DNA from: a virus
Taxonomy: Duplodnaviria > Caudoviricetes
Virus record (IMG/VR): IMGVR_UViG_3300033068_001495
Coordinates: 522 to 64,521 of that record
Reading direction: 5' to 3' (one strand)
Length of the DNA stretch: 64,000 bases
Part shown: piece by piece, positions 9,799-24,673 of the stretch
Numbering within the stretch: the first letter of the stretch is position 1
Layout of the letters: each line of letters opens with the position of its first letter
Program-made: the position numbers and the translations under genes
Notes under the pieces: generated by a model
Database searches by the model: none
Told to the model about the DNA's origin: nothing
The model's input: the letters and a program-made list of their open reading frames with translations, nothing else

Positions 9799-9804
9799 GA
9801 CGAT
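9792..9804 (-). promoter_or_regulatory. 13-bp operator copy upstream of a leaderless promoter
   Basis: ATCGTAGGACGAT is the reverse complement of ATCGTCCTACGAT; TACCAT at 9811-9816, ATG at 9824. Confidence 0.65.
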
Positions 9805-9823
9805 GACGGCTACCATCCGGCCT

Positions 9824-10693
9824 ATGGATCCCCACGCTGCAGCAGCGGTCGGCTTGGTCGAGCACTACCGGGACCACCCGCCCGACTACCGGGTGGTCGT
9901 CCCGTCGTACCAGCGGGCCGAGGCGTGCGGCGCGATGACGCTGACGATGCTGGAGCAGCACGACGTCGACCCCGACAAGGTCACCGTGTTCGTCGCCGAC
10001 GACGCCGAGGCCGAGACGTACCGTGAGGTGCTGGGCGACTGGCGGGTGGTCGTCGCCGCGCTGGGCACCGGGCACGCGCGCCGGTTCATCAGCGAGCACT
10101 ACCCGCCCGGGACCCGCCTGATCAGCTTCGACGACGACGTCTCGGAGATCCAGGCGAAGACCCCGGACGACAAGCTGGAGCCGTGGACCGGCACGATCGA
10201 CCACCTCGCGGCGCTCGGGTTCGGGCTCGCCGACGCCATCGACGCACGCCTGTGGGGCATCAACCCCACGGCCAACGGGCTGTTCCTCAGCCACGCCGCC
10301 ACGCTGGGCGAGCGGTTCGTCTGCGGGATCATGCACGGCTCGTACGCCGGTGACCCCGCGACCGTCGGCCCCGACCGATCGTTCCGGTCGTCAGGGGAGG
10401 ACTACGTGACGTGCCTCCGGTCGCTCGACCTGTACCGGAACGTCGCCCGGATCGAGTGGCTCGCCCCGAAGACCCGCTACTTCGCCGCCGGTGGCATCCA
10501 AGGCGAGTTGGGCGGGAAGCCCGAACGCCAGGCCGACAACACCGCGGCCCTCACCGAGATCGCCGAGCAGTGGCCACGCCGGGTGCGGCTCGTCGAGAAG
10601 GCAGGCGGCGTCACGTCGCTCAGGTTCCGATCGACTCGGGTCGTGGCCAAGGTGCCGCGCACCCCACTGGAGGAGGCAGCCGGTGTCGGATGA
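9824..10693 (+). CDS. TET-associated glycosyltransferase (TAGT / GREB1-C-like, GT-A fold)
   Basis: VVVPSYQRA, KVTVFV..AE..Y, GHARRFI, LISFDDD (DxD), LWGINP, EDYV..LRSL, GGIQ; near TET/JBP and ParB. Confidence 0.82.
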   Translation: MDPHAAAAVGLVEHYRDHPPDYRVVVPSYQRAEACGAMTLTMLEQHDVDPDKVTVFVADDAEAETYREVLGDWRVVVAALGTGHARRFISEHYPPGTRLISFDDDVSEIQAKTPDDKLEPWTGTIDHLAALGFGLADAIDARLWGINPTANGLFLSHAATLGERFVCGIMHGSYAGDPATVGPDRSFRSSGEDYVTCLRSLDLYRNVARIEWLAPKTRYFAAGGIQGELGGKPERQADNTAALTEIAEQWPRRVRLVEKAGGVTSLRFRSTRVVAKVPRTPLEEAAGVG

Positions 10694-11291
10694 ACGCTCG
10701 CTGGGCCACGGCCCCGCACCGAAGAAGGAGGACGGCGCCGCTCAGCAGCTGATCGACGCGCACCTCGAAGCGCGCCGGATCCGGGTGGAGAACCTGGAGC
10801 TGCAGGGCCTGTCGCAGCGGCGCATCGCTGACGCTGTCGGGGTGAACGTCGCGCAGGTCAACCGGGACCTCGCCGTGGTCCGTGCGGCCCGCCGGGAGGC
10901 GTTCGGTGCGTCGACGGTGCTGCACAACCGGGACCTCAGCGCCGCCCGCCTGGAGAACGAGCGTCGCCAGGTGCTCGTCGACATGGCCGGTGACCCCGGC
11001 GACCCCACCGCGACACCGCCCCGCCCGGCGAAGGCCCCGTCCCTCACGGCGTGGCAGGGCCACCGACTGCTGCTGCAGATCGAGAAGCAGCGCGCCGAGC
11101 TGATGGGCCTGAACGTACCCACCCGGATCCACCTGGCGGAGATCCCCGCTGGCGAGGCCGACACGTCGGGTCTGGAAGAGGCGCCCCGCGCCCGCACGCT
11201 GGCCGACCTGCTCGGCGACGACGCAGGCACGGTGAAGCCGTCCGAGTTGGCCAAGGTGCTGCACATGGCCACCCACCGGAGCGCATCATGA
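10683..11291 (+). CDS. terS: terminase small subunit (N-terminal HTH)
   Basis: RRIRVENLELQGLSQRRIADAVGVNVAQVNRDL HTH; coiled coil then LLQIEKQRAELMGLNVP; upstream of the terL ATPase gene. Confidence 0.7.
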   Translation: MSDERSLGHGPAPKKEDGAAQQLIDAHLEARRIRVENLELQGLSQRRIADAVGVNVAQVNRDLAVVRAARREAFGASTVLHNRDLSAARLENERRQVLVDMAGDPGDPTATPPRPAKAPSLTAWQGHRLLLQIEKQRAELMGLNVPTRIHLAEIPAGEADTSGLEEAPRARTLADLLGDDAGTVKPSELAKVLHMATHRSAS

Positions 11292-11422
11292 TCCGGGCGT
11301 CGGTCATCGCGTTCTTCGTGTCGCTGCTGCTGCTGTCGTCGGCGCAACTGTTCGGGTGCGACCCGGCCGCCCTGCCGTGCCCACCGGCATCGTGCATCGT
11401 GAACGTGCCGGGCCCGCCGTGA
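11288..11422 (+). CDS. small secreted or lipoprotein-like peptide
   Basis: Hydrophobic N-terminus ending LFGC; ATGA/GTGA coupling. Confidence 0.5.
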   Translation: MIRASVIAFFVSLLLLSSAQLFGCDPAALPCPPASCIVNVPGPP

Positions 11423-11631
11423 CCCCCGACCTGTCCGCCCTGTTCTACGCGGCGTGCGCCGAGGTGGCCGACGGGCGCATCGCCGAGATCGAGATCGACG
11501 ACGTCACCGAGAACTCACTCGAAGGCACCGAGCGGCGCGTCACGATCGTCGTGCGCCGCGAGGCCCGCCCCATGGTGGTGATGGGCCCGATGCGCTCGGA
11601 CGGCACGATCGGCGATACCGACGACACGTAA
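11419..11631 (+). CDS. hypothetical protein
   Basis: GTGA-coupled, 70 aa. Confidence 0.55.
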   Translation: MTPDLSALFYAACAEVADGRIAEIEIDDVTENSLEGTERRVTIVVRREARPMVVMGPMRSDGTIGDTDDT

Positions 11632-11637
11632 GACGTT
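11625..11637 (-). promoter_or_regulatory. 13-bp operator copy
   Basis: CACGTAAGACGTT (reverse complement AACGTCTTACGTG); TACGCT at 11642-11647; ATG at 11655. Confidence 0.6.
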
Positions 11638-11654
11638 GGGGTACGCTCCCACGC

Positions 11655-11999
11655 ATGGCGAAACCGTTCAACGTGCGCATGGAAGACGACCTCCGAGCAG
11701 CGATCGACGAGCGCGTCGCGGCCGGTGAGGCGACGAACGCATCCCAGTGGGCCCGTGAGGCGCTGGCCGGAGTCATCGAACTCGGTGGGCTCGACACGCT
11801 GCGCAGCGCGACGGAGATGGTCGGCCGCACCGGCACCGGCCCCCAGCCCCATCCCGCCCGGGCGCTCCAGCTGCAGGGCCGTGAGCAGCCCGGCACGCTG
11901 GGCCGCAGCGTCGTGGCCACCGACGGGCCCCGCGCCGGGGTGACCCGCCAGCCCGACGCCGAGCCCCGACGCCAGTTCGGCCTGAGCCAGCGCTCGTGA
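11655..11999 (+). CDS. ribbon-helix-helix (Arc/CopG-like) DNA-binding protein
   Basis: MAKPFNVRMEDDLRAAIDERVAAGEATNASQWAREAL fits the strand-helix-turn-helix RHH pattern. Confidence 0.75.
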   Translation: MAKPFNVRMEDDLRAAIDERVAAGEATNASQWAREALAGVIELGGLDTLRSATEMVGRTGTGPQPHPARALQLQGREQPGTLGRSVVATDGPRAGVTRQPDAEPRRQFGLSQRS

Positions 12000-12772
12000 C
12001 ACTCCTGGAGGACCCGCCGCCGCCCGAGCTGGCCCTCCCTCCGGCGCTGCTGGAGCTGCCCCTCGACGAGCTGAACGAGTACCTACGCCGCGAGAACCTC
12101 GGTGTGTGGGTGGAGCAGGTGCGAGGCCTGGACAACTCGGCGCTCCACTGGGAGTGGGCCGACCTCGCCATGACCGAACGCCGCCTGTGCGTCGTCGCTC
12201 CCCGCGACCACGCGAAGACCGAGACGTTCACCGTGAACCAGCTGGCATGGCGGATCGTCTACACCCCGGGGATCAAGTGCCTGGCGTTCACGTCGGAAGG
12301 CGAGTTGGCCAAGGAGCTGAAGGCCCGGATCGACGAGGCCGTCGCGCAGGCCCGCCCGGAGCTGCTCGCCGAGGCCGTCGAGCGGTCAGCGAAGAAGACG
12401 ATCTACGGGAACGGCGCGACGCTGCAGGTGCGGTCCACCGGCCAGAAGGTGCGCGGCATGCACCCGGACGTCATCGTCGGCGACGACGTGCTGGAGGAGG
12501 GCAACACGCTGACCCACTACCAGCGGCTGAAGGTCCAGCGGTGGTGGTTCGGCACGGTCGAGGGCATGGGCCATCCCGGAACGTGGCGCGTCGTCGGCCG
12601 CCACCGGGTGTGGTTCCCCGCGACGGTCATCCATCTTGTCGGCACCCCGTTCCACGCGTCGGACCTGCTGATGGGCATGCGGACGAACCCCGTCTACCGG
12701 TTCCGCCGGTACGCTGCCGAGTTCCATCCCGGCGACCTCGTCCCCGGGACCATGGCCGTCGAGGCGCTGTGA
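11996..12772 (+). CDS. terL: terminase large subunit, ATPase half only (split gene)
   Basis: VVAPRDHAKT (Walker A), VRGMHPDVIVGDD (Walker B), HLVGTPFHASDLL (motif III); 258 aa with no nuclease domain. Confidence 0.88.
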   Translation: MTLLEDPPPPELALPPALLELPLDELNEYLRRENLGVWVEQVRGLDNSALHWEWADLAMTERRLCVVAPRDHAKTETFTVNQLAWRIVYTPGIKCLAFTSEGELAKELKARIDEAVAQARPELLAEAVERSAKKTIYGNGATLQVRSTGQKVRGMHPDVIVGDDVLEEGNTLTHYQRLKVQRWWFGTVEGMGHPGTWRVVGRHRVWFPATVIHLVGTPFHASDLLMGMRTNPVYRFRRYAAEFHPGDLVPGTMAVEAL

Positions 12773-12951
12773 CCGTCTGCGAGAGCTGCCAGATCCCGTC
12801 GACCTGCGAGGGCGGGCTGGAGGTCGACCCCGACACCGGTCTGTGCCTGGCGTGCCAGCCGTGCCCCGACTGCGGCCGGTCCGACACCGACTGCGACTTC
12901 TCCATGTGCCGGACTCTCGATCGCCCCGTCTCGGATCGGTTCACCGGTTGA
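12769..12951 (+). CDS. Cys-rich small protein
   Basis: CESC, CLAC, CPDC and further Cys residues in 60 aa. Confidence 0.55.
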   Translation: MTVCESCQIPSTCEGGLEVDPDTGLCLACQPCPDCGRSDTDCDFSMCRTLDRPVSDRFTG

Positions 12952-13295
12952 TGCCGACTATGACGTTGGACCTGCCAGAGGACGAGGACCGCGGCCCGCA
13001 CGTCGACGACATCGTCGTGACGTGCACGCGGGTCTACCGGGTGGCCGACGTGCGCCCGGTCGATTCCCGGCAGTGGTGCAACCGGTGGCGGCTCACGACC
13101 GAGCTGATCGGTGTGCGCACCTTCCGAGCGCGGGCGGGCGAGTGGGCCCGGTTCTCGGCGCTGGAGGTAGAAGTCCCGGGCAAGCCCGGGGTGACCGGGT
13201 TCCCGACCGTCGAGCACGACACGAAGATCCACTGGACGATCCGGGCGCTGCCCCACGAGACGCCCGCTGAGTTCTTCGCTCGCGTCAGGGGCTGA
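12951..13295 (+). CDS. hypothetical protein
   Basis: TGATG-coupled, 114 aa. Confidence 0.55.
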   Translation: MPTMTLDLPEDEDRGPHVDDIVVTCTRVYRVADVRPVDSRQWCNRWRLTTELIGVRTFRARAGEWARFSALEVEVPGKPGVTGFPTVEHDTKIHWTIRALPHETPAEFFARVRG

Positions 13296-13334
13296 TACCC
13301 CGCCCACCTGCGCCGGGTGGGTACCCTCGTGGTT

Positions 13335-13646
13335 GTGGCTGCTGACGACGTCCCGCTTCGTGAGTACGTGGACATGCGGTTCCAGCAGTCCCAGCAGGCC
13401 GTCGACCGTGCCCTGGCCGCAGCCGACCGGGAGACTGCCGCTGCGCTCGCTGCAGCAGAGAAGGCGGTCGACAAGGCCGAGGCCGCGGCGAACGAGTGGC
13501 GCAAATCGGCCAACGAGTGGCGTGGCGCGATGACGGACCGTGAGCGCAACTTCTTGCCGCGCCGCGAGTTCTACGTGATCGTGGGCACGATGGCCGTCGT
13601 CATCGGGCTGGGCGTGTCGATCCTCTCGATCCTCAGACCCATCTGA
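13335..13646 (+). CDS. coiled-coil protein with C-terminal TM helix
   Basis: PLREYVDMRF...AEKAVDKAEAAANEW...NEWRGAM then TM helix; leaderless start 7 nt after TACCCT (13322-13327). Confidence 0.65.
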   Translation: MAADDVPLREYVDMRFQQSQQAVDRALAAADRETAAALAAAEKAVDKAEAAANEWRKSANEWRGAMTDRERNFLPRREFYVIVGTMAVVIGLGVSILSILRPI

Positions 13647-13649
13647 GGT

Positions 13650-13662
13650 ATCGTCTTACGAC
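13650..13662 (+). promoter_or_regulatory. 13-bp operator copy overlapping -10 (TATCGT)
   Basis: ATCGTCTTACGAC directly before ATG 13663. Confidence 0.65.
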
Positions 13663-14139
13663 ATGAACTCAACCACACGCACCCGCTCCGTCCTCACCTT
13701 GCTCTCGACGAGCACCCACGTCGACGAGTTCGACGACGGGACCGTCATGGCCACGTACGGCAACACCGACACCGAGCGGGAGGAGAACCCCGCCCGGTAC
13801 CGCACGGTCATCGTCGACCAGGAACTGCGCGGCGAGCTGGGCGACCCGGAGCTGATCACCATCACGATCGAGCCCGGCGACCGGCTCAACATCGAGGACG
13901 AGGACATCCCCGAGCCGACCTACGGCAACGCGACGTTCGAGGTGTACCAGCGCGAGGACAACAAGTTCGACTGGCGCCTGAAGCACGAGAACGGGAACGT
14001 CGTCGCGACGTCGGGCGGGCAGGGCTACGAGACGGCCGGGTCCGCGTTCGAGATCGGCCGCCGGGTCATCAGCAGCGGGTACAACATCTCCCTGGAGCCC
14101 ACCGGGCCGCTGCACTTCACGAAGCCCTCCGACACGTAA
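13663..14139 (+). CDS. protein with C-terminal YegP/DUF1508-like domain
   Basis: FEVYQREDNKFDWRLKHENGNVVATSGGQGYE fits the YegP pattern; N-terminal half unrelated. Confidence 0.65.
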   Translation: MNSTTRTRSVLTLLSTSTHVDEFDDGTVMATYGNTDTEREENPARYRTVIVDQELRGELGDPELITITIEPGDRLNIEDEDIPEPTYGNATFEVYQREDNKFDWRLKHENGNVVATSGGQGYETAGSAFEIGRRVISSGYNISLEPTGPLHFTKPSDT

Positions 14140-14167
14140 GCCATGGCCGTAGGCGCCCCTTCGGGGT

Positions 14168-14180
14168 AGTGTCTTACGCA
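14168..14180 (+). promoter_or_regulatory. 13-bp operator copy overlapping -10 (TAGTGT)
   Basis: AGTGTCTTACGCA; ATG at 14180. Confidence 0.55.
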
Positions 14181-14347
14181 TGGTCGAGGTTGACCCGCTG
14201 CTCGTCGAGGAGATCGAAGAGGCCATGAGCCTCCCGATCGGCCACGTGAAGGACGTCCTCCCGGACGGCCACATCCGCGTGCTCCTCACGGGCGACGGGC
14301 TCGACCTGTTGGCCTTCGGCTTCCTGGCTATCAACAACGAGGAGTGA
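14180..14347 (+). CDS. small hypothetical protein (55 aa)
   Basis: MVEVDPLLVEEIEEAMSLPIGH...INNEE*; leaderless start; not in the ORF track. Confidence 0.55.
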   Translation: MVEVDPLLVEEIEEAMSLPIGHVKDVLPDGHIRVLLTGDGLDLLAFGFLAINNEE

Positions 14348-14350
14348 CAG

Positions 14351-14848
14351 ATGCGTGGAGAGAGCGGGACCCAGCTGGGCCTCGGGCTCGACGTGCGACA
14401 GGTCGGCGAGATCCGGACGTACCAGTTCGTGTTCCCGTTCCTGCCGCCGTCGAAGAACCAGTACGACTCATGGCAGGGCCCATGGAAGTCCTCTGCGAAG
14501 GCGAAGTGGATCAAGCACACGGCGCGCATCGCCGACGAGCTGGGCGTCACCGACGCCGGGTTCACCCGCATCGGGCTGTCGGCCCGGCTCGTGTTCCCCA
14601 CGAACCAGCGGCGCGACCCCCAGAACTACGCGCAGACGCTGTGGCACTTCTTCCCCGACGCGCTGCAGCGGTGCGGGGTGCTCGTCGACGACCGCGACGG
14701 CGCGATCGACTGGGGCCCGAACCTTGGGCTGCAGCTCCACGTCGACAACCGGCCGGGCAAGGCGAAGACGTCACGCAAGCGCACGATCGTGATCGTGTCG
14801 GCACGGGTGCTGCCGGACCGCACCTCCGAGCACCTGGAGCGTGGATGA
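14351..14848 (+). CDS. rusA: RusA-like Holliday junction resolvase / endodeoxyribonuclease
   Basis: LPPSKN, RRDPQN (RRDxDN variant), DALQRCGVLVDD. Confidence 0.6.
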   Translation: MRGESGTQLGLGLDVRQVGEIRTYQFVFPFLPPSKNQYDSWQGPWKSSAKAKWIKHTARIADELGVTDAGFTRIGLSARLVFPTNQRRDPQNYAQTLWHFFPDALQRCGVLVDDRDGAIDWGPNLGLQLHVDNRPGKAKTSRKRTIVIVSARVLPDRTSEHLERG

Positions 14849-15381
14849 TGGGCTTCGACCCCAGCAGGGTGACGGCCAGGAAGTCGACCCTGAAACCGGT
14901 GCACGTCACGGACCTCCCGACGGAGCCGACCCCCGTGGTCATCTGCTTCGACGACGGCCGAGACGACGTCCACTGCTACGCGACGGCCGAGGGCGGGAAC
15001 CTTCACCTGTCGGGGCTGCCCGACATGACCTTCCCGATCGGCAACGGCCGCATCGTGCTCGAAGGAGCACCCGGCGTCGTGCTCGGGGCCTTCGACGACA
15101 GCGCGATGGCGGTCATGCCACCACTCGACGACCCGCCCCCACATCTCCAGCAGACCCACCTCTTCCAGTGGTTCCCCGAGGGCATGATGACGGGCTCCGG
15201 CCGGGTGCCGCCGCACGGCCCCGACTACGGCGTCACGCTGACCGTCGGCCGCCTGCGCGCGCTGATGGCAGACCTGCCCGAGGCGATGCCCGTTGGGATC
15301 GTGTACGACGACGGCACCGGCAACGCCATCGTCACGTCGGTGTTCGTGCAGGGCGACGAGATGCACATCGGGCAGGACTGA
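14845..15381 (+). CDS. hypothetical protein
   Basis: ATGA-coupled; ends in a LTVGRLRALMADLP domain. Confidence 0.55.
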   Translation: MMGFDPSRVTARKSTLKPVHVTDLPTEPTPVVICFDDGRDDVHCYATAEGGNLHLSGLPDMTFPIGNGRIVLEGAPGVVLGAFDDSAMAVMPPLDDPPPHLQQTHLFQWFPEGMMTGSGRVPPHGPDYGVTLTVGRLRALMADLPEAMPVGIVYDDGTGNAIVTSVFVQGDEMHIGQD

Positions 15382-15518
15382 TGGGCCTCGTCCAGCGCGT
15401 GAACGAGTGGGGTCAGAAGCCTGCGTACGGCGGCAAGTGGTGGTTCGAGCTGTCCATCGTGGTGGGTGCCCTCGCCGGATTCTCGATGGCGATGCTGGCC
15501 TTGTCGGTGATGCGCTGA
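15381..15518 (+). CDS. small membrane protein
   Basis: C-terminal TM helix; TGATG coupling. Confidence 0.5.
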   Translation: MGLVQRVNEWGQKPAYGGKWWFELSIVVGALAGFSMAMLALSVMR

Positions 15519-15718
15519 TGGGCCGCCCCGATGACACCGTGCTGTGGGAGCCGAAGCCGGTTGGCCGCCAGCTGACCGTCAGCGACCTGCGGGCCGTGCT
15601 CGCGGGTCTTCCAGATGGCATGGCCGTCGTGATCGCCCAGCAGGGCGGCGGCCAGGAAGTCGACCCCGAGACGATCTACGTCTACCGTGGCCGCCTACGC
15701 ATCGAGTCGAGCTACTGA
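15518..15718 (+). CDS. hypothetical protein
   Basis: LTVSDLRAVLAGLPDGMAV domain; TGATG coupling. Confidence 0.55.
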   Translation: MGRPDDTVLWEPKPVGRQLTVSDLRAVLAGLPDGMAVVIAQQGGGQEVDPETIYVYRGRLRIESSY

Positions 15719-16089
15719 TGGAGGATCCGTACGCCGATCTGATGCGCCGTGCGCTCGGTGCCGGGCAGTCCCCGAAGGGCCCGGACCACAAGCCGAGCCC
15801 GGACCACGACGACGCCGAGTCGATCCGGGCGAACATCCGTGTCCTCCGCCCGGGCGCGCCGCCGTTCGACTGCACCGCGGAGATGGTGATCGAGCCCGAC
15901 GTCGTGAAGGTCCGCCGGTTCAAGGCCTCGGGGCTCCCGGCCGGGCCGTTCCCGACAGGCACCCGGTATCAGCTGCCCGCGACGATGCGGTTCAACGTGC
16001 CGGTCGTGATCGACGACGGGTCCGGCATGCCGGTCCGCATGGGTCGCGTGAACCGGGCGGATCGCCGGAAGGCCGCACGCCGCCGGTGA
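15718..16089 (+). CDS. hypothetical protein
   Basis: Coupled ORF ending NRADRRKAARRR. Confidence 0.55.
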   Translation: MEDPYADLMRRALGAGQSPKGPDHKPSPDHDDAESIRANIRVLRPGAPPFDCTAEMVIEPDVVKVRRFKASGLPAGPFPTGTRYQLPATMRFNVPVVIDDGSGMPVRMGRVNRADRRKAARRR

Positions 16090-16391
16090 GCACACCCGTC
16101 GTCTCCTATGCCGAACTCCGGAATCTCGACCCAGCAGATCGGCAGGACGTGAACGTGTGGATCGCGGAGACGTTCGACTGGGCGGTCGTGTCGATACGGC
16201 TGTTCGGAGAAGGCGCGGTCGAGCTGATGTGTGTGGCGGGCGCGAAACGGTCGGACGTCGTTGACGGGTGCCTGCACACATTCACCGCCTACGAAGACGG
16301 CTGTGCCCGCGGCGTGCTCACTACGCGCCGGGTCGTGAACGTCTCGGCGATGCCCCCTCCGCTCCTGAGGCTGCTCGTCGGCGTAGCCTGA
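16086..16391 (+). CDS. hypothetical protein
   Basis: GTGA-coupled; more A/T-ending codons than its neighbours. Confidence 0.5.
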   Translation: MSTPVVSYAELRNLDPADRQDVNVWIAETFDWAVVSIRLFGEGAVELMCVAGAKRSDVVDGCLHTFTAYEDGCARGVLTTRRVVNVSAMPPPLLRLLVGVA

Positions 16392-16396
16392 ACGGC

Positions 16397-16585
16397 ATGG
16401 CCGTCAGCCGTCACGGGAAGTCGATCAAGCTGCCTCGGGTGTACGAGGCGCTGCGCCGCAAGGGCTACACGAAGGCGAAGGCCGCCGCGATCAGCAACGG
16501 GCTGTGGCGCCGGAAGCGTGGGCTGCCACCGAAGTCGGCCCGCGGTGCCAAGGGCCGGACACGCCGCCGAAGTCGTCGACGCTGA
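16397..16585 (+). CDS. small highly basic protein (SIK...YEALRRKG..KAKAAAISN motif)
   Basis: Motif typical of a small actinobacterial and phage family; Arg/Lys-rich tail. Confidence 0.65.
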   Translation: MAVSRHGKSIKLPRVYEALRRKGYTKAKAAAISNGLWRRKRGLPPKSARGAKGRTRRRSRRR

Positions 16586-16597
16586 GCGTAAGACGCG
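16585..16597 (-). promoter_or_regulatory. 13-bp operator copy
   Basis: AGCGTAAGACGCG; TACCGT at 16599-16604; ATG at 16612. Confidence 0.6.
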
Positions 16598-16611
16598 CTA
16601 CCGTGACCCGC

Positions 16612-17202
16612 ATGGCCCAGACGATCGTGATCAACCTCCCCGGGTGCGACGACGACACGGACGGGTCGCAGCCATCCGAGCGTGAACTCCTCACGCTCCT
16701 CATCTCACAGAACGAGGCTCTGATGACCGAACTGCTCGAACTCCGCGAAGCCGTCGCACGCGTCGACACCGTCACGCACTCCGCGGTGGCCCTCATCGAA
16801 GGGCTCGCTGCCCGCCTGGAAGAGGTCGCCGGTGACGAGGCCGCCGTCCGCGCCCTCGCCGCCGAGCTGACTGAGGACGCCGGTGCGCTCGGTGCAGCGG
16901 TCGAGGCGAACACCCCGGCCCCGCCCGCCGACGTGCCCGTCGAGGACCCGGGCGAGCCGACGCAGCCCGTCGACGAGGTGCCCGCCGACACCGAGGGCGA
17001 GACGTCCGACCCGCCGGTCGAGACGCCCGCCGTGCCCACCCCCGACGCTCCCGTCGAGGATCCGGGCCCGGTCGAGAACCCCGCCCCCGCGGACGAGAAC
17101 TCCACGGAGACGATCATCGAGCCGGACGCACCGACGACCGAGACGGTCACCGACGGCGAGGCTCCGGCCACCGCCGACCGCGCCGCCCTGCGCGACATCT
17201 GA
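16612..17202 (+). CDS. helical phage protein with Pro/acidic tail
   Basis: LREAVARVDTVTHSAVALIEGLAARL...LAAEL...LGAAVEANTP, a pattern common in phage virion-associated hypotheticals. Confidence 0.65.
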   Translation: MAQTIVINLPGCDDDTDGSQPSERELLTLLISQNEALMTELLELREAVARVDTVTHSAVALIEGLAARLEEVAGDEAAVRALAAELTEDAGALGAAVEANTPAPPADVPVEDPGEPTQPVDEVPADTEGETSDPPVETPAVPTPDAPVEDPGPVENPAPADENSTETIIEPDAPTTETVTDGEAPATADRAALRDI

Positions 17203-17265
17203 CTCGCTGCCCCGCTCGCATACCGGCTAGGGCCGCGCGGGGCGCACAGCTACACCACATAGAGC

Positions 17266-17397
17266 GCCCCGGCCACGTCGCCGGGGCCGAGGGAAGGGAC
17301 GGGTCACCACGGATGGTGGCCCGTTCCCGCGCCCGGGCTGGTATCGTCGCCGGTGCCCACCCCGGGTGAGCAGTGCTCGGTCTGGCCCGGGGTGGGC
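17266..17397 (+). ncRNA. tandem hairpin region (candidate structured RNA or terminator set)
   Basis: Stems 17266-17273/17280-17287, 17296-17309/17314-17328 and 17355-17366/17386-17397. Confidence 0.35.
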
Positions 17398-17405
17398 GCC
17401 CCCTC

Positions 17406-17418
17406 ATCGTCCTACGCG
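17406..17418 (+). promoter_or_regulatory. 13-bp operator copy
   Basis: ATCGTCCTACGCG; TATCGT at 17433-17438; ATG at 17446. Confidence 0.6.
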
Positions 17419-17445
17419 GCGTGCGCATCCTGTATCGTCCGACCG

Positions 17446-18183
17446 ATGGCGACGACACTGGCTGTGGGGCTGAACGCGAACAACCGGCCCGAGTACCTAC
17501 TCGAAGTGCTGCGCTCCTGGCACGTGGCGTTCAGCTTCACGATGTGGCCGACCGCCGCGATCCTGCGGAACGAGCCCGGCGACCAGGCTGGGAAGTGCCA
17601 TGACTACGGCGGGGTGTTCGAGTGGGGCGTCGTGCAGAACACCGAACGGCTCGGAGTGCTGCGGAACCCGTGGCACACCATGGAGCACGACCTGCTCCCG
17701 CTGGAACCCGACCTCATGGTCCTGGCTGAGGACGACACGGTCGTCGCCCGGGACGCGCTGGCGTGTCTGATGGCGATGCACCACACGGCGCAGGAGCAGC
17801 CCGGCTGGGACCCCGACCGGACGTTCTACTGCCTGAACCAGCGGTGGGCGCGCCCGCTCGTCGACGACGAGCACCCCGACGACGTCCTGTGCCCGGGCCC
17901 CCAGTTCTACCCGTCGGTGTGGGCGTGCACCCCGGCGATGTGGTCCGAGGTGCTGGGCCCGACGTGGGACCACGACTACTCGCACCGTGGCTGGGACTGG
18001 AACATCCAGCTCCGCCTCATGGGCGAGCACGGGCTCCGGGTGATGTGCCCCGCGGTGTCGCGGTCGAACCACATCGGGGTCGAAGGCGGCGCGCACATGA
18101 CCCCGGAGTTGGCGCCCGAAGCAGTCGCGCACACGTTCAACGCTGAGCTGGCACACCGCCGGTTCCGATACCAGGAGGCATAG
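17446..18183 (+). CDS. GT-A fold glycosyltransferase (GT2/GT13-like)
   Basis: NRPEYLLEVLRSW, QN.ERLGVLRN, VLAEDD (DxD-like), GWDWNI, PAVSRSNHIG..G.H. Confidence 0.75.
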   Translation: MATTLAVGLNANNRPEYLLEVLRSWHVAFSFTMWPTAAILRNEPGDQAGKCHDYGGVFEWGVVQNTERLGVLRNPWHTMEHDLLPLEPDLMVLAEDDTVVARDALACLMAMHHTAQEQPGWDPDRTFYCLNQRWARPLVDDEHPDDVLCPGPQFYPSVWACTPAMWSEVLGPTWDHDYSHRGWDWNIQLRLMGEHGLRVMCPAVSRSNHIGVEGGAHMTPELAPEAVAHTFNAELAHRRFRYQEA

Positions 18184-19025
18184 TGGAGATCACCGTCACG
18201 GGCGGGCACGGGTTCATCGGGTCGGCCACGGTCGACGTCGGCAAGAGCCGCGGGCACAGCATGCGGCCGTTCGACCGGACCACCGGCAACGACGTGCACT
18301 ACATCCGCCCGGAGGACTGCGGCGACGCCGTGATCCACCTCGCGGGCATGCTCGGCACCGCTGAGCTGTTCGACGACCCCTACGCGGCGGTCCACGAGAA
18401 CGTGAACGGCACCCTCGCCGTGATCCAGGCGTGCGAGGTGGCCGGGGCGAAGCTGGTGCTGATCGGGATGCCGATGGTCTGGCGGAACGTGTACCAGACG
18501 ACGAAGGCGTGCGCAGCGGGCCTGGCCAACGCGTGGATGGAACACCGGGGCCTGCACGTGTCGCACGTCCGGGCGTTCAACGCCTACGGGCCCGGCCAGC
18601 ACCTCCACCCGGTGCGCAAGATCCTGCCGACGTTCGCCAACGCAGCGTGGCGCGGCGAACCGATCGAGATCTGGGGCTCGGGCGAGTCGCTCGTCGATCT
18701 GATCTACGTCGATGCTCTCGCCGAGGTGCTGGTCCGCACCGCCGAGATGGCCCCCGGCAAGGGCGAGGTCATCGAAGCGGGCACCGGTGTCGGCCAGACC
18801 GTCAACTCGGTGGCCGACACCGTGAACCACCACGTGTGGTTGGCCGGGTCCGCCACGGACATCGTGCACGCGCCGATGCGCCCCGGTGAGGCTGAGTTCA
18901 CCGACGGCACCGTGGCCACCGGCGAGGGCCTCGACCTGATCGGGATGACGCTCGCCGATCTGCGCGACCCGTACGGCGAGGCGTTCGGCAGGACGGTCGA
19001 CTGGTACCGCGAGGACCGGCCGTGA
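18183..19025 (+). CDS. NAD-dependent nucleotide-sugar epimerase/dehydratase (extended SDR)
   Basis: VTGGHGFIG, VIHLAG, YQTTK (YxxxK), RAFNAYGPGQ, DLIYVD. Confidence 0.9.
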   Translation: MEITVTGGHGFIGSATVDVGKSRGHSMRPFDRTTGNDVHYIRPEDCGDAVIHLAGMLGTAELFDDPYAAVHENVNGTLAVIQACEVAGAKLVLIGMPMVWRNVYQTTKACAAGLANAWMEHRGLHVSHVRAFNAYGPGQHLHPVRKILPTFANAAWRGEPIEIWGSGESLVDLIYVDALAEVLVRTAEMAPGKGEVIEAGTGVGQTVNSVADTVNHHVWLAGSATDIVHAPMRPGEAEFTDGTVATGEGLDLIGMTLADLRDPYGEAFGRTVDWYREDRP

Positions 19026-19360
19026 CCACGACCCCGGCGCGCCGGGTCGACTCTCGGGAGGCACTGTCCCAGCCCGGCGACTACGCCTTGATCAGCGTCC
19101 GCGTCGGCGAGCCCGATGACGAGCGTCGCGTCCCGTACCTCGCCTGCCTGCTCCCGATCAGCTCCGGCGACCAGTTCGACGACCGGGCCGGGCACGGCCT
19201 GATCATGCTCCCGCTGGGCGGGGACTCCGGATGGACCTTCACCGAGCACCCCGACGGGTCGGTCAGCGTGCAGCCGTCGATCTTGGTCCACGGCAAGGAG
19301 GGCGACCCCGACGCCTGGCACGGGTACCTGGAGCCCGGGAACGTGTGGCGCGAGTGCTGA
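19022..19360 (+). CDS. DUF6527-like protein
   Basis: WTF.....SVSVQPSIL......WHGYL..G..W..C pattern. Confidence 0.5.
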   Translation: MTTTPARRVDSREALSQPGDYALISVRVGEPDDERRVPYLACLLPISSGDQFDDRAGHGLIMLPLGGDSGWTFTEHPDGSVSVQPSILVHGKEGDPDAWHGYLEPGNVWREC

Positions 19361-19536
19361 AGCGCGTGCTCTGCTGCTTCCTCGGGCACCTCTACGTCAC
19401 CGGCACCGCGCTCGACGGCCACGCCACCGCCTGCCGCCGGTGCGATCTGCCCCGCTCCCGGGATCGCCGCCGCCTGCCGCCGCTCGACGCGACCACGGAC
19501 CTGCGCCCGGACCATCGGTTTTCCCCCCACGATTGA
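19354..19536 (+). CDS. small Cys/His protein (LCCFLGH...CRRC)
   Basis: Motif typical of small prophage proteins. Confidence 0.5.
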   Translation: MLKRVLCCFLGHLYVTGTALDGHATACRRCDLPRSRDRRRLPPLDATTDLRPDHRFSPHD

Positions 19537-19571
19537 GGGGTGGTGCGGGTCTGGCGTCCCACCACCGACTG

Positions 19572-19584
19572 ATCGTCCTACGAT
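19572..19584 (+). promoter_or_regulatory. 13-bp operator copy overlapping -10 (TACGAT) of the terL nuclease gene
   Basis: ATCGTCCTACGAT; GTG start at 19591, 6 nt after the -10. Confidence 0.65.
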
Positions 19585-19590
19585 GCCCCG

Positions 19591-20514
19591 GTGGAGACGA
19601 CCGGGAACGTGACGACGTCGCTGTGGCCGGAGCGTTGGCCCGCGATCGCGAAGCAGGAGTGCATCGACATCGTGCTCGCGGCGCCGCCCGAGGACCGCAC
19701 CGTCGTGAAGTTCGGGCTGCCATGCGACACGTGCGAGCTGGCATCGGCGTGCCTCAACGCCAAGCGCAAGGTGATGGGCCCCCTCCTGTACGACCGGGAG
19801 ATCCAGACGGTGCCCCGCTCGTCCGAGTCGTCGATGTTCCCTCGGGAGCTGTTCGAGCCGGACATGCTGCGCGACGAGGAGTTCCTCCGCTACTACGTGA
19901 AGCCCTACTCGTTCGAGGACCGGTTCGCGGTGGCCAGCGCGTGGGACATCGCGTGGTCGGAGCGGTCCGGTGGCGACTGGATGGTGAAGATGACCGCGGT
20001 GCTCGACCGCGAGACGGGCAAGCGGAAGCTGATCGACATCCTCCGGGTGCAGAAGCTGTCGTTCAAGCAGCAGGTCGAGTTGGTCCAGGACGAGTGGCGC
20101 AAGTACCACGACGACGCCGTCGTGATGGAGGCCGACGCCGCGCAGAAGGTGTGGGGCCAGTACATCGGCGAGACGACCGCGGTGCCGATCATGCGGCACG
20201 AGGCCGGGGCGTCGCAGGAGGACGGCGGCAAGCGCGACCTCACGACCGGTGTCCCGTCGCTCATCATGCAGCTGGAGGCCCACCGGTGGCAGTGGCCGAA
20301 CCAGCGCGGCACCTTCCACAACGAGAACATGGAGGTGTTCCTGTCCGAGGCCGAGAACTTCGGTTGGGTCGACGGGAAGCTCGAAGGCGTCGGCGAGCAC
20401 GACGACACCGTCATGGCGTGGTACCACCTGCAGTGGGTGATGAACCTGCTGGAGGCCTCCCCCAACATGCCGAAGCGCATCCCGCGGAAGGGCCGCCCGG
20501 GCGCCATGATGTAG
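19591..20514 (+). CDS. terL: terminase large subunit, lid + RNase H-like nuclease half (split gene)
   Basis: SLWPERW, YDREIQTVP..SESSMF, AWDIAWSERSGGDW (first acidic residue), MEADAAQ, HDDTVMA (C-terminal acidic motif). Confidence 0.88.
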   Translation: METTGNVTTSLWPERWPAIAKQECIDIVLAAPPEDRTVVKFGLPCDTCELASACLNAKRKVMGPLLYDREIQTVPRSSESSMFPRELFEPDMLRDEEFLRYYVKPYSFEDRFAVASAWDIAWSERSGGDWMVKMTAVLDRETGKRKLIDILRVQKLSFKQQVELVQDEWRKYHDDAVVMEADAAQKVWGQYIGETTAVPIMRHEAGASQEDGGKRDLTTGVPSLIMQLEAHRWQWPNQRGTFHNENMEVFLSEAENFGWVDGKLEGVGEHDDTVMAWYHLQWVMNLLEASPNMPKRIPRKGRPGAMM

Positions 20515-20517
20515 CCG

Positions 20518-20569
20518 AACTATTGACATGGGTGGAGAGCGGACCCATGATGGCCTCGTACCTGGCTGA
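20518..20569 (+). promoter_or_regulatory. AACTATTGACA promoter plus GTACCTGGCTGA UTR box
   Basis: TTGACA 20523-20528, 17 nt, CATGAT 20546-20551; box 20558-20569; GAGAGGA RBS. Confidence 0.75.
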
Positions 20570-20586
20570 CCACGAGAGGACCACCG

Positions 20587-20772
20587 ATGACCGACACGCA
20601 GGCCCGTAGGCTCGCACGGCTGATGAACCGCACCATCGTGCGGCTCGGCGCCCTGTACGCCGAAGCCCCACCCTCCGCCGATGTCGAGCAGGCGCTGCTC
20701 CGCCGGTTCGACGCCACCTGCCAGACGTCGTCGTTCCTCGACGCCGACCTGTTCGTGGGCACGTGGTCATGA
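20587..20772 (+). CDS. hypothetical protein
   Basis: RBS-led first gene after the promoter. Confidence 0.6.
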   Translation: MTDTQARRLARLMNRTIVRLGALYAEAPPSADVEQALLRRFDATCQTSSFLDADLFVGTWS

Positions 20773-21626
20773 GCTGCCAGACCGCCGTCTGCGGACCCGA
20801 CCTCCCGTGCGAGCCCTGCACCATCGACATCCTGATCGCCCGCGGCACGTGGGACACCGAACGCCAGCGGGCCATCTGGCGCAACGTCACCCCCGAAGAC
20901 ATCGCCCCCGAGCTGGCCGACCAGCCCCGCGGCACCGGCACCGGGTCGGGCCGATCGCTCGGCCGTGGGTTCCGGCCCGCGACAGAGAAGCAGATCGCCT
21001 TCCTGATCCACCTCGCCACCGAGCTGGGCACCCTGAACGAGCTGGCCGAGTCTGAGCTGGCCGTCGGACTGTCGTCCGCCGAGGCCTCCGAGCTGATCGA
21101 CCTGGCGAAGGCAGAGCTGGACCGCCGCCCGGCACCGGCCGCCGCCGTCCCGGTCGCCCGCTGGAAGAAGCACCAGGGCGCGTGGGTGCTCGTCGCCACC
21201 GGCGCGACCACCGGCGACACCATCACGGTGCGCCGCTCGTCCGGCGAGGAGCGCGAGGTGACCCTCGGAGCGGAGGTCGCGCCGGGCATGTTCGAGGAGG
21301 CTCGTGCACGCAAGGCGCCGCGCGACCCCAACGGCGGCGCCCGGGTCGAGCTGATCGCCGGTCGGGTGTACGCCACCGCCGACGGCACCGTCGTCAGGGT
21401 CCAGGAGTCACGGACGAGCGGCAAGCTCTACGGCAAGGTCTGGCAGGACGGATCGTTCGAGTACGCCGCTGGTGCGCTGCGCGACATCGTCCGCCCGCTC
21501 ACGCTCGAAGAAGCCGCGGCGTTCGGTCACGAGACGGGCCGCTGCTGTGTGTGCGCCCGTGAGCTGACCGACCCCGCATCGATCGCAGCTGGGATCGGCC
21601 CGGTCTGCGCAGGGAGGTTCGCATGA
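20769..21626 (+). CDS. DUF6011-like Zn-finger domain protein
   Basis: C-terminal GRCCVCARELTDPASIAAGIGPVCA; internal PATEKQIAFL motif. Confidence 0.75.
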   Translation: MSCQTAVCGPDLPCEPCTIDILIARGTWDTERQRAIWRNVTPEDIAPELADQPRGTGTGSGRSLGRGFRPATEKQIAFLIHLATELGTLNELAESELAVGLSSAEASELIDLAKAELDRRPAPAAAVPVARWKKHQGAWVLVATGATTGDTITVRRSSGEEREVTLGAEVAPGMFEEARARKAPRDPNGGARVELIAGRVYATADGTVVRVQESRTSGKLYGKVWQDGSFEYAAGALRDIVRPLTLEEAAAFGHETGRCCVCARELTDPASIAAGIGPVCAGRFA

Positions 21627-22834: not shown

Positions 22835-22897
22835 CGGAGGTGGGTGTAGCCGGGTTCCTGCCGGTGCCTCTGTCCCGCGAGTGGCGGGCGAACACCC

Positions 22898-22944: not shown

Positions 22945-23044
22945 CGAGCTACGGTCCGACCGCGGATGGCAGCCACGGTCGGGGTCGGGGGTCCGGGGAG
23001 GACGTCCCCCGGCCGTGGCACCTCCGACGGCTACGCTCCGGCGC

Positions 23045-24673
23045 ATGGCCTTCGTCCCCATCCGCATCGGCGAGAAGCTCCGCATCATCGAGACGTCTCG
23101 CAAGGATCCGCTCCAGCGTGAGATCGATGAGCAGGTCGCCGAGCAGTGGCGGGTCCACGGGGTGGTCCAGCGGCGCAAGTACGCCGACGGCGAGCAGTAC
23201 GCCGACGACAACCTGAACAAGTTCTACGAGCTGAAGCTCGACCCGCTGTCGGGGTGTCTGCTGCCCGAGCACGAGAAGAAGCACGCCTACTCGACGCAGA
23301 TCGGTGAGTCCGTGAAGTTCATCGCGGACCAGCTCGCCGAGTCGTTCGAGGTCGTCGCGATCGACGACGCTGTGCAGGCCATCATCGACGACGCGCTGCG
23401 CCTGTCGGGGCAGCTGTCGGGCACCGGCGAGGACGACGACGTGTCGATCGAGGAGGTGCTCGAAGACGTGCTCACCGCGGGCGACGTCGCGGTGGAGCTG
23501 CGCTGGGACCCCGATCAGCAGGCCGTGTTCTACGACCTGTGGGAGTCCGAGGTCGTCGAGGTGGTGTGGGCCGACCGCGACAACGTCGAGCAGGTGCTGC
23601 TCCGTGAGTTCGTGTGGCGCTTCGACGAAGACCTCGGTGAGGAGCGCCAGGTCGAGGAGCGCACCGAGTGGGAGATGGCGGTGCGCCGGTCGGCCACCGA
23701 CGAAGGCGTCGAGTGGCTGGAGTGCCAGCGATCGGTCTTCTGGGACAACGAGGAGGAGCCCCACGAGCAGGAGTGGACCGGGTTCCCGTTCATCCCGTGG
23801 GCGCTACTCCGCTGCCAGAAGAAGGGGCTCCGTGCCCAGCGCGGCTCGTCGATGATCACCGATCAGGTCATGTCGGCCGCCGACCGGTACAACGCGAACG
23901 AGAACCTCGGGTACCTGATCGCTCGGTTCAACTCGCACGCCAGCCTCGCCGTCACCGGCGACGCCGCGACACTGAAGATGGACGCCGTCGGCTACCTCGA
24001 CAAGGACATCGACGACGTGCTCGGGTTCCCCGGTGGCACCGACCTGAAGGTGCTGCAGCTGCCGACCGACCCGAAGATGATCGAGCACCAGCGCGCGGTC
24101 CTGTCGGAGTCGATCTACGCGGCGTTCGGGCTGACACGCATCGAGCCCGACACCATCCAGGGGCTCGGCCAGGTGTCGGGCTACGCGCTGGAGATCCTGA
24201 ACCGCAAGACGGAGGGCACCTTCCGGAAGATCAAGCGGCACTTCGTCCGCGACCTGCGCTCGCTGTTCGCCATGACGATCGACCTGTACGAGGCCCTCGC
24301 CGCCGAGGACCCCGTGAACGACGCCGACGCGCTCGACCAGCTGATGGACTCCGACGCGCAGGGCTCGGATGTCCCGGCGTGGGTCACCCAAGAAGAGCTG
24401 GTCTACGCGGACCGCACGATGGAGATCCGCATGGGCTCCGGCTACGTCGTCGACGACGTGCTCACCCGCGAGGACTTCACGGCCAACCTGACCTCCCGGT
24501 CGTACGCGCTGAAGGAGCGTGGCATCGGCCCGGAGGACATCAAGCAGATCGAGCTGCAGATCACCGAAGAGGCGAAGGCGAAGACCGCGGCGGTGCTCGG
24601 CGAGTCGAGCCGGTTCGGGTCGCAGCGCGGAACCTCCACCGGGACGGCGCCGTCGGATACGGTGGGCGCATGA
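23045..24673 (+). CDS. portal protein (SPP1 gp6-like)
   Basis: About 540 aa, acidic; GFPFIPW, G.S.ITDQV...DRYN, LKVLQLP, VSGYALEI; leaderless start 7 nt after TACGCT; first gene of the head module. Confidence 0.8.
   Translation: MAFVPIRIGEKLRIIETSRKDPLQREIDEQVAEQWRVHGVVQRRKYADGEQYADDNLNKFYELKLDPLSGCLLPEHEKKHAYSTQIGESVKFIADQLAESFEVVAIDDAVQAIIDDALRLSGQLSGTGEDDDVSIEEVLEDVLTAGDVAVELRWDPDQQAVFYDLWESEVVEVVWADRDNVEQVLLREFVWRFDEDLGEERQVEERTEWEMAVRRSATDEGVEWLECQRSVFWDNEEEPHEQEWTGFPFIPWALLRCQKKGLRAQRGSSMITDQVMSAADRYNANENLGYLIARFNSHASLAVTGDAATLKMDAVGYLDKDIDDVLGFPGGTDLKVLQLPTDPKMIEHQRAVLSESIYAAFGLTRIEPDTIQGLGQVSGYALEILNRKTEGTFRKIKRHFVRDLRSLFAMTIDLYEALAAEDPVNDADALDQLMDSDAQGSDVPAWVTQEELVYADRTMEIRMGSGYVVDDVLTREDFTANLTSRSYALKERGIGPEDIKQIELQITEEAKAKTAAVLGESSRFGSQRGTSTGTAPSDTVGA

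Follow-up and report, generated by a model that had tools for sequence, protein, structure and literature searches.

Every mechanistic study of viral packaging motors that we know of has used a large terminase (TerL) made as one chain. The solved TerLs, namely T4 gp17 (3cpe, 2o0j), Sf6 gp2 (4idh), P74-26/G20c (4znl, 5m1f), PhiV-1 (8dgc) and HK97 (6z6d), are one chain in every example. TerL genes interrupted by inteins have been described in actinobacteriophages (Kelley et al. 2016, PMC5050341). Two terminase genes of Arthrobacter phages were noted in a 2017 paper (PMC5513430), and Klyczek et al. is cited for the comparison of these two-gene TerLs. In GenBank, the products of KellEzio and Kitkat (Cluster AT) and of DanielleIgnace are named 'terminase large subunit, ATPase domain' and 'terminase large subunit, nuclease domain', and PHROGs holds one family for each half (phrog_28155 and phrog_31692). 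The two-gene TerL itself is thus not new, since a whole clade has it and cultured Arthrobacter phages are already annotated so, and the novelty implied for the split by the sequence-only reading falls away. New in our DNA are only an unusually long gap between the genes and a candidate promoter element.

The window, a stretch of 64,000 nt, comes from an uncultured actinobacterial phage. In this window the large terminase is encoded by two separate genes with 6.8 kb between them, at the positions where the sequence-only reading had placed them. Features of the region are as follows.

11454..11999, + strand, small conserved gene upstream, abutting the ATPase half through a GTGA stop/start overlap
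11996..12772, + strand, TerL chain 1 (258 aa), N-terminal helices and RecA-like ATPase core
12769..19536, + strand, gap cargo, about 16 ORFs on the same strand, delimited by GC3 frame analysis and choice of start
12769-12951, + strand, Cys-rich ORF of 60 aa, gap cargo
13663-14139, + strand, DUF1508 protein (PHROGs/Pfam)
14351-14848, + strand, RusA-like resolvase (PHROGs/Pfam)
14845-15381 and 15544-16089, + strand, two paralogous ORFs (paralogue repeats D4, D11)
16397-16585, + strand, DUF7218 protein (PHROGs/Pfam)
17353-18183, + strand, ORF without family, gap cargo
18183-19025, + strand, NAD-dependent sugar epimerase (PHROGs/Pfam)
19022-19360, + strand, DUF6527-like protein (PHROGs/Pfam)
19572..19584, + strand, palindromic 13-mer ATCGT-CCT-ACGAT, ATCGTCCTACGAT, containing the -10-like TACGAT
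19591..20514, + strand, TerL chain 2 (307 aa), ATPase lid, hinge and RNase H-like nuclease
20523..20551, + strand, sigma-70-like promoter match (TTGACA, 17 nt, CATGAT; consensus match only)
23015..24673, + strand, portal protein (phrog_33334, E 7e-120)

Chain 1 starts with a GTG in the overlap with the upstream gene and matches phrog_28155 ('terminase large subunit') from end to end (E 2.3e-76; residues 18-256 on profile positions 16-258 of 260). It is an ASCE ATPase with the Walker A lysine (APRDHAKT, K74), the Walker B acidic pair (VIVGDD, D163/D164) and motif III (GTP, G216-T217-P218) of TerL, and these residues occupy invariant columns in an alignment of 50 homologues. The gene stops 17 residues past the last core strand, RYAAEF, and includes neither lid nor nuclease. 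Its AF2 model has pLDDT 93, and the best Foldseek matches are PhiV-1 TerL (8dgc_E, TMq 0.67), the T4 gp17 ATPase (2o0j) and the P74-26 ATPase. Chain 2 consists of the lid (residues about 9-70), the hinge (about 69-80) and a C-terminal RNase H-like nuclease (about 110-290) with the acidic metal-binding triad D119, E180 and D271/D272. Both the triad and LWPERW (W12/R15/W16) fall on invariant columns of its own 50-sequence family alignment. All TerL motifs claimed from the sequence are present. Chain 2 matches phrog_31692 (E 3.3e-106; residues 6-287 on profile positions 32-307 of 328) and Pfam Terminase_6C (31.7 bits, cut-off 22.6). Its AF2 model has pLDDT 83, with residues 71-79 disordered when modelled alone, and Foldseek matches it to the TerL nucleases of G20c, P22, RB49, Sf6 and T4. 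Both halves thus resemble solved TerLs in fold (ATPase TMq 0.53-0.67, nuclease probability 1.0), whereas a sequence search with either half detected no meaningful match to any PDB chain.

The pair tiles the one-chain profile phrog_38 without overlap, the ATPase half on positions 289-470 and the nuclease half on 498-696. The window record has exactly two such tiling matches, as has each of two cultured phages with complete genomes, and neither the window nor any close relative holds ATPase and nuclease in one polypeptide. KellEzio and DanielleIgnace, whose records name Arthrobacter as the host of isolation, have no other TerL ATPase (Terminase_6N, TerL_ATPase, Terminase_3) in their complete genomes; viable phages therefore rely on the two-gene form. 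The same search was negative in the window record, which is 73% complete by CheckV, so the full-length terL elsewhere that was named as fatal to the split is absent from it; a second terminase on the missing DNA is formally possible.

The closest one-chain sequence relatives are the phrog_38 TerLs of Mu-like and related phages (D3112, BalMu-1, FP_Mushu; metagenomic P0170, P0156 and others), with 24-38% identity in the ATPase, 25-33% in the nuclease and identical motif order. P0170 reads 'YCFRKYQA', 5 further residues and then 'ALWPERY', and this is the cut site of the window gene. LWPER does follow directly on the region where the first ORF ends, as had been proposed, and the cut lies between the last RecA-like core strand and the LWPER start of the lid, with chain 2 beginning about 10 residues ahead of LWPER. 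In comparison with one-chain TerLs, the split clade adds a 17-residue C-terminal tail to the core and a short N-terminal tail to the lid. In comparison with P0170, it has an insertion of about 19 residues in the lid and four clade-invariant cysteines (C24/C45/C48/C54) without counterpart. An exhaustive representative search with the ATPase half returned one-chain forms only at 38% identity or less, and the close relatives are all split. Every match with E<1e-30 ends at the core or within about 90 residues after it, so none of them has a nuclease domain. In L011 and L006, the 3' end of the ATPase gene has received a free-standing LAGLIDADG-like gene (in L011 the call rests on a GFFDGEGSF motif read by eye, with Pfam match absent), accompanied by a second, recoded copy of the final 24 codons. 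The two copies share the ending '...AVEAL-stop', which indicates that this 3' end was already a true gene end.

KellEzio, Kitkat and DanielleIgnace have the same two chains (49-53% identity each) with the same split point. The genus of KellEzio is Kelleziovirus. Gene order in the Arthrobacter two-gene phages is that of the window: small conserved gene, ATPase half, RusA-like and small ORFs, nuclease half, and portal further on. Synteny was assessed by tblastn of window genes against KellEzio, DanielleIgnace, L005, L009 and L011. Full-length matches to both PHROGs families, the shared split point and the syntenic module place the window, as judged from sequence, within the two-gene clade. The clade is large, with 234 protein clusters for the ATPase half and 247 for the nuclease half, half-length in all those listed. 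A megablast search of phage genomes with 11000-21500 as query gave no match. In the window, 6.8 kb and about 16 ORFs separate the halves, as against 0.9-1.8 kb and 3-6 ORFs in the Arthrobacter phages. Among 23 loci located by alignment-based scan, the gap ranges from 0.3 to 9.2 kb and that of the window is the second largest. The two genes come within 0.3-0.4 kb of each other in L010, L037 and L038. The widest gaps are 9.2 kb in L027 and, in the relative G001, >22 kb. With a further relative at 5.1 kb, the separation in the window is long and not the exception that it had seemed.

Across loci, the gap is a variable cargo slot with a RusA resolvase as its usual occupant. The sequence-only reading had counted about 17 unrelated ORFs here; our own count is about 16. 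DUF1508, a 55-aa ORF, RusA and DUF7218 are common to the window, L011 and L005, and the epimerase and its upstream gene to the window and L008. Relative to the Arthrobacter phages, the extra cargo of the window comprises DUF1508, DUF7218, the sugar epimerase and the paralogous ORFs. The ORF at 17353-18183 matched nothing in Pfam or PHROGs. Downstream, the portal gene stands directly 3' of the nuclease half in L011 and L005, and about 2.5 kb of extra genes precede it in the window, unlike in the Arthrobacter two-gene phages. Upstream, the product of 11454-11999 has homologues in the same position in L011, L006, L005, L008, KellEzio and DanielleIgnace and matches phrog_36257, to which PHROGs assigns no function. 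Our guess is a small terminase or DNA-binding partner; its leads in the protein atlas, ribbon-helix-helix or antitoxin-like, are weak, with a score of 0.87 that falls short of the useful range.

The nuclease half begins with a GTG 6 nt after TACGAT, the geometry of a leaderless promoter. In the window, ATCGTCCTACGAT has 6 copies with <=2 mismatches against 1.65 expected, a number reached by 0/100 shuffles. In L011 and L005, metagenomic relatives closer to the window, the nuclease half is preceded by the same 12-mer, TCGTCCTACGAT, and starts with an ATG 6 nt downstream of it; the Arthrobacter phages are without the palindrome. In L010 and L012 the nuclease half overlaps the preceding gene, with no room for its own promoter. 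The 70 nt upstream of the element in the window fold no better than shuffles (z +0.86), and we claim no terminator there; at the same place L011 (z -3.7) and L005 (z -3.3) have strong hairpins. Of the promoter and operator previously assigned to the nuclease half, a promoter-like and over-represented element is present, and its function is suggested by geometry. Regulation of the nuclease half separately from the first gene is plausible, and from the element we infer a separate transcription of chain 2. Separate promoters might let cutting and translocation be tuned independently, as first proposed.

Both halves are conserved. Against the closest relative, L011, dN/dS is 0.24 for the ATPase and 0.27 for the nuclease, rough NG86 values from genes with GC3 of about 95% in which dS is underestimated. 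Relaxed selection or loss of catalytic residues in one half, which would have spoken against a working pair, was seen in neither, and purifying selection is similar on the two. Over 22 loci, the identity of one half tracks that of the other (r = 0.94). Complex prediction of chain 1 with chain 2 scored 0.76, while the best of 3 controls scored 0.00. This mark was reached by 58/80 solved complexes and 2/110 mismatched pairs, counts that are only roughly valid because the alignments used in the prediction were self-made. At least 84% of the contacts recur between runs, and partner pLDDT is at least 74. The predicted interface joins chain 2 residues 3-18, 55 and 69-80 to chain 1 residues 46-50, 67-73, 217-226 and 238-245, largely invariant columns of both families, and the model has the lid docked on the ATPase core. 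The model can also owe its success to likeness to solved one-chain TerLs, in which the equivalent contacts are intramolecular. We infer physical association and the stoichiometry of the two chains. With conserved and co-varying halves and a complex model that passes its controls, assembly of the motor in trans, as proposed earlier, remains the best reading. Counting against it, we know of no restoration of packaging by mixed isolated ATPase and nuclease domains of T4 gp17; the cut position there is different.

Probably, then, TerL here is two polypeptides that are never rejoined and assemble non-covalently, a state ancestral in the clade, with the gap as an insertion slot. Chain 1 would supply the ATPase core, and chain 2 the lid, hinge and nuclease. 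Because the cut falls between core and lid, an active ATPase must be completed non-covalently. Lid and hinge of chain 2 would dock on the core beside the Walker A loop, motif III and the last core strand, and the resulting heterodimer presumably builds the usual ring on the portal. The split state would be ancestral to a large clade of actinobacterial phages and prophages, in which the space between the genes may have become a tolerated insertion slot. Its usual occupant, a RusA-type junction resolvase, is plausibly related to packaging, and in the sub-lineage of the window the slot may have grown to 4-7 kb by added accessory genes.

The halves might instead form no stable complex, with the core alone as the translocating ring and the lid-nuclease recruited for initiation and headful cuts via TerS, portal or DNA. 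phi29 gp16, a terminase ATPase without nuclease, is a model for such a core-only ring. Halves as far apart as in L027 and G001 are compatible with this, the promoter-like element shared with L011 and L005 fits different timing or dosage, and titles of papers on full-length TerL structures speak of flexible, variable ATPase-nuclease contacts. However, chain 2 holds the ATPase lid as well as the nuclease, and chain 1 alone would thus lack a part always present in one-chain TerLs. Moreover, the predicted contacts set lid and hinge against the Walker A/motif III region, the interface residues are invariant in both families, and the close spacing in L010, L037 and L038 suggests co-expression. We regard separately working halves as improbable.

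Restoration of one polypeptide, whether through RNA (trans-splicing or a giant intron), through a split intein or by recombination that removes the 6.8-kb insert from the DNA, has precedents in the introns or inteins that interrupt other phage terminase genes and in real inteins of relatives of the ATPase half. The homologues P0010, P0011, P0126, P0127, P0131 and P0125 resemble the TerLs of Kelley et al. in being interrupted, with insertions after the Walker A lysine that begin with Ala or Cys and end with HN followed by Ser. However, these lie away from the split, and the window gene has no intein, is divided at another site and is not rejoined. With chain 1 ending 17 residues past the core and chain 2 starting about 10 before LWPER, there is no room for split intein pieces, and the chain ends form no Cys/Ser+1 or HN junction. 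No Rfam intron family lies within 11000-21500, where the sole match at a permissive E-value, to IRES_Bip, is a chance one below gathering score; the earlier statement that no intein or intron features are visible thus holds at the junction. The insert is about 16 same-strand coding ORFs with no recognisable recombinase and without flanking direct repeats (best candidate, a 42-nt pair with 71% identity), and the split persists across gaps of 0.3 kb to >22 kb with quite different cargo. We hold rejoining to be very unlikely. Still less credible is an artefact of chimeric assembly, or a decaying terL that an insertion has broken in a defective element. The record is an incomplete metagenomic contig, and in the MAG relative G003 an internal TGA interrupts the ATPase half and the query used detected no nuclease half, so decay does occur in prophage remnants. 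Against this, one 22.4-kb Logan contig, perhaps from the same sample, spans 10500-22500 at even depth with 0 differences. Independently assembled relatives from other samples repeat the order ATPase, DUF1508, RusA, DUF7218, nuclease and portal, so that a chimera at the junctions, raised earlier as a danger, is not indicated. In addition, neither ORF is disrupted, the catalytic residues of both are invariant, dN/dS is about 0.25, and cultured phages have the same layout.

We give a rather low chance to a stronger form of the two-chain reading, in which the core/lid cut is a functional design: chain 2, perhaps stabilised by a clade-specific four-cysteine metal site, would have a leaderless promoter to itself and be produced on another schedule than the ATPase core, and the gap would be a protected slot for packaging-linked and DNA-modification cargo. 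If so, the phage could control when a packaging- and cutting-competent motor exists. A natural, widespread two-chain TerL, cut at the core-lid junction and represented by cultured Arthrobacter phages, would allow the lid-lever force model and ATPase-nuclease cross-talk to be tested by mixing, titrating and mutating subunits. Moreover, half-length genes, possibly many kilobases apart, should be reckoned with in annotation, in terminase-based phage detection, in completeness estimates and in terL phylogenies. In addition, the sigma-70-like match at 20523-20551 follows immediately after the stop of the nuclease half and stands ahead of the next gene at 20587.

Profile searches and structure models identified the two open reading frames, present as the sequence-only reading had placed them, as complementary parts of a large terminase (TerL).

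11996-12772: ATPase half (chain 1), 258 aa
19591-20514: lid and nuclease half (chain 2), 307 aa

Chain 1 matched the phrog_28155 profile ('terminase large subunit', 260 positions) end to end (E 2e-76) and positions 289-470 of phrog_38, a one-chain TerL profile of Mu-like and related phages. Chain 2 matched phrog_31692 (328 positions, E 3e-106) and positions 498-696 of phrog_38, and scored above the cut-off for Pfam Terminase_6C. A PDB sequence search gave no sequence-level match for either half. Confident AlphaFold models (pLDDT 93 for chain 1 and 83 for chain 2) matched TerL ATPase domains (PhiV-1 8dgc_E, T4 gp17, P74-26) and TerL nuclease domains (G20c, P22, RB49, Sf6), respectively. Moreover, catalytic positions of the ATPase (K74, D163/D164, G216-T217-P218) and of the nuclease (D119, E180, D271/D272) were invariant in 50-sequence alignments.

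Both halves align in order to their nearest one-chain relatives, which are of the Mu-like type with 24–38% identity. In P0170, a metagenomic one-chain TerL of 639 aa, 'YCFRKYQA' pairs with RFRRYAA(241) of chain 1, and 'ALWPERY', 5 residues later, pairs with residues 10-16 of chain 2; this short spacing bears out the claim that LWPER directly follows the region where the first ORF ends. Because the alignment places both ends there, the cut lies after the last RecA-like core strand and before the lid subdomain, and the lid goes with the nuclease chain. Chain 2 differs from P0170 by a lid insertion of ~19 residues. Four lid cysteines (C24, C45, C48, C54) are invariant in 50 homologues and lack counterparts in P0170, and may be a structural metal site peculiar to the clade with split TerL.

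A complex prediction built on the two family alignments scored 0.76, and the best of three controls scored 0.00. Of 80 solved complexes, 58 reached this mark, as did 2 of 110 mismatched pairs. Split-gene halves can, however, pass through contacts that the model saw inside one-chain TerL structures, and the score shows likeness to such structures rather than binding. At least 84% of contacts agreed between runs, and partner pLDDT was at least 74. On chain 1, the predicted contacts fall on the Walker A loop (67-73), motif III (217-226), the last core strand (238-245) and residues 46-50; on chain 2, they fall on residues 3-18 (LWPERW), the hinge (69-80) and residue 55. Many of the contact positions are invariant in both families; chain 2 residues 71-79 are disordered when chain 2 is modelled alone. 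Assembly of the two chains in trans is the best-supported reading, and we regard it as likely.

No intron family was detected around the split, no flanking repeats are present around the insert, and a split intein was rejected, as the chain ends have neither room nor motifs for it; the absence of intein and intron features noted from the sequence is thus upheld. Intein-like insertions of 120–330 residues do occur in chain 1 homologues (P0010, P0011, P0125, P0126, P0127, P0131), directly after the Walker A lysine (...HAK / ALALDT...VVTHN / SE). The first residue is Ala in some of them, as in class 3 inteins, and Cys in one; they end in HN followed by Ser, and P0125 has a weak LAGLIDADG_3 match. 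The ATPase-half gene of the window itself is without an intein. Two related loci, L011 (the closest relative) and L006, carry a different kind of insertion.

L011:4930-5593 and L006:6190-6851: region behind the ATPase gene, with a free-standing gene (163 aa, LAGLIDADG-like GFFDGEGSF motif)

Downstream of this gene lies a leftover copy of the last 24 codons of the ATPase gene, 83% identical at the protein level, the functional copy being recoded, and both copies finish with AVEAL-stop. This looks like intron-less homing, with a homing-endonuclease gene inserted and the gene end left in two copies, and it shows that the ATPase gene truly ended here before the insertion. 

The sequence-only reading had named an assembly chimera, a full-length terL elsewhere, or inactivation and relaxed selection in one half as refuting it. 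A Logan contig of 22.4 kb with even depth spans 10500-22500 with 0 differences; it may share the sample and therefore shows only the agreement of a second assembler, and independent samples have the same gene order. No second full-length terL was found in the window genome, of which 27% is missing. Values of dN/dS were 0.24 (ATPase) and 0.27 (nuclease) against L011, and 0.45 and 0.29 against the related locus L005, so that neither half is degraded relative to the other. In addition, the two halves vary together in identity from locus to locus (r = 0.94). In an Actinomycetota MAG (record G003, loci L039/L046), an ATPase-half homologue at G003:C23:1494301-1494912 has an internal TGA, and this query did not find the nuclease half in the 5.2-Mb genome; the homologue is probably a decayed prophage remnant.

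The arrangement, whose novelty had been implied, is already annotated in cultured phages and is clade-wide. When GenBank phages were searched with tblastn, both halves turned up, ~50% identical, in the Arthrobacter phages KellEzio (gp4 and gp10), Kitkat, BeatusComedenti and DanielleIgnace (gp4 and gp8). Their products are named 'terminase large subunit, ATPase domain' and 'terminase large subunit, nuclease domain', and the two genes are separated by a RusA-like resolvase and small ORFs. Klyczek et al. (PMC5513430) remarked on the two TerL genes. The same paper (genometrics section) states that the termini of the KellEzio and Kitkat genomes could not be determined readily, which might relate to the unusual terminase. 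Our literature search found no functional study of two-gene TerL. For the ATPase half the protein collection contained 234 clusters, and for the nuclease half 247; among the matches listed, all are half-length. In an exhaustive representative search, no match with E<1e-30 carried a nuclease domain, because all of them end at the ATPase core or within ~90 residues after it. Moreover, phrog_38 gave exactly two complementary matches each in the window record, KellEzio and DanielleIgnace, and Terminase_6N, TerL_ATPase and Terminase_3 revealed none further in these three; therefore, the cultured phages rely on two genes. The split clade would make a good natural system for studying packaging-motor mechanics.

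The width of the separation, claimed as unusual, is not unique either. A total of 40 related loci were fetched, and the gap was taken as the distance between the RYAA and LWP codons. In 23 loci it was 0.30–9.17 kb (median 1.85 kb); the 6.9 kb of the window ranks 22nd of 23. Gaps are long throughout its sub-lineage: 5.1 kb with 14 genes in L011 (79% and 86% identity), 4.5 kb in L005, >4.3 kb in L008 and >2.6 kb in L012. In G001, a 66-kb contig that is the record of locus L026, the halves lie on the same strand >22.7 kb apart.

22700-23452, minus strand: ATPase half of G001, ~40 kb further downstream than the nuclease half
64188-65015, minus strand: nuclease half of G001, adjoining the portal

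Thus, from this spread of gap lengths, the wide separation is the upper end of a continuum and not a one-off event.

Gap cargo has a core in common with relatives, comprising a DUF1508 protein, a 55-aa ORF, RusA and a DUF7218 protein. In the window, this core is joined by a Cys-rich mini-ORF, a DUF6527-like protein and two paralogous ORFs (repeats D4, D11), together with an unknown gene and an NAD-dependent sugar epimerase that are also in L008. The neighbouring ORFs at 14845-15381 and 15544-16089 are tandem paralogues because of their common 65-nt and 37-nt repeats (71–89% identity). RusA is found again and again in the gap across the clade. T4 endonuclease VII clears branched DNA, and by analogy the recurrent RusA may have a packaging-linked role of this kind.

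A promoter-like element before the nuclease half had been proposed, and a palindrome with TACGAT is indeed located there.

19572-19584: ATCGTCCTACGAT, a 5-3-5 palindrome containing TACGAT, GTG start 6 nt later
6711, 9792 (minus strand), 13650, 17406, 19572 and 62107: copies of the 13-mer ATCGTCYTACGAT, mostly just before gene starts

In actinobacterial leaderless promoters the start codon stands shortly after a -10-like element, and the TACGAT-to-GTG spacing matches this geometry. L011 and L005 also have TCGTCCTACGAT before the nuclease half, there followed by ATG after 6 nt; it is conserved non-coding sequence, and the flanking proteins of these phages differ by 14–22%. The six copies of ATCGTCYTACGAT at ≤2 mismatches (1.65 expected), of which three are perfect and the one at 6711 has ATG 7 nt after TACGAT, are a candidate family of phage promoters or operators. 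Strong hairpins lie upstream of the element in L011 and L005, and none was seen there in the window. A sigma-70-like promoter match directly follows the nuclease-half stop codon. Because the nuclease half overlaps the preceding gene in the related loci L010 and L012, a putative promoter of its own is a trait of the window sub-lineage and not of the split itself. Separate regulation of the two halves may be regarded as a reasonable hypothesis.

The window is nearly all of a 64.5-kb linear IMG/VR viral contig (73% complete by CheckV), with a G+C content of ~69% and nearly every gene on the plus strand. From its head genes and nearest relatives it belongs with the siphovirus-like phages of Actinomycetota, and related prophages are carried by Saccharopolyspora, Actinosynnema and Actinomycetospora genomes.

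23015-24673: portal, a head gene

Unlike in L011 and L005, where the portal comes directly after the nuclease half, ~2.5 kb of extra genes (20587-22425), including a DUF6011/DUF3072 protein (20763-21626), lie between them in the window. A short way upstream of the ATPase half are DNA-modification gene sets whose content varies between relatives: QueC, PTPS, a radical SAM enzyme and GTP cyclohydrolase I, a 7-deazaguanine set, in L005:1940-4702 and L008:495-3245, and a C5 methylase, an Asn-synthase-like gene and a methyltransferase in L006:714-4275. Modification genes of the window are a TET-associated glycosyltransferase (TAGT, 9803-10693) and the sugar epimerase inside the gap (18183-19025).
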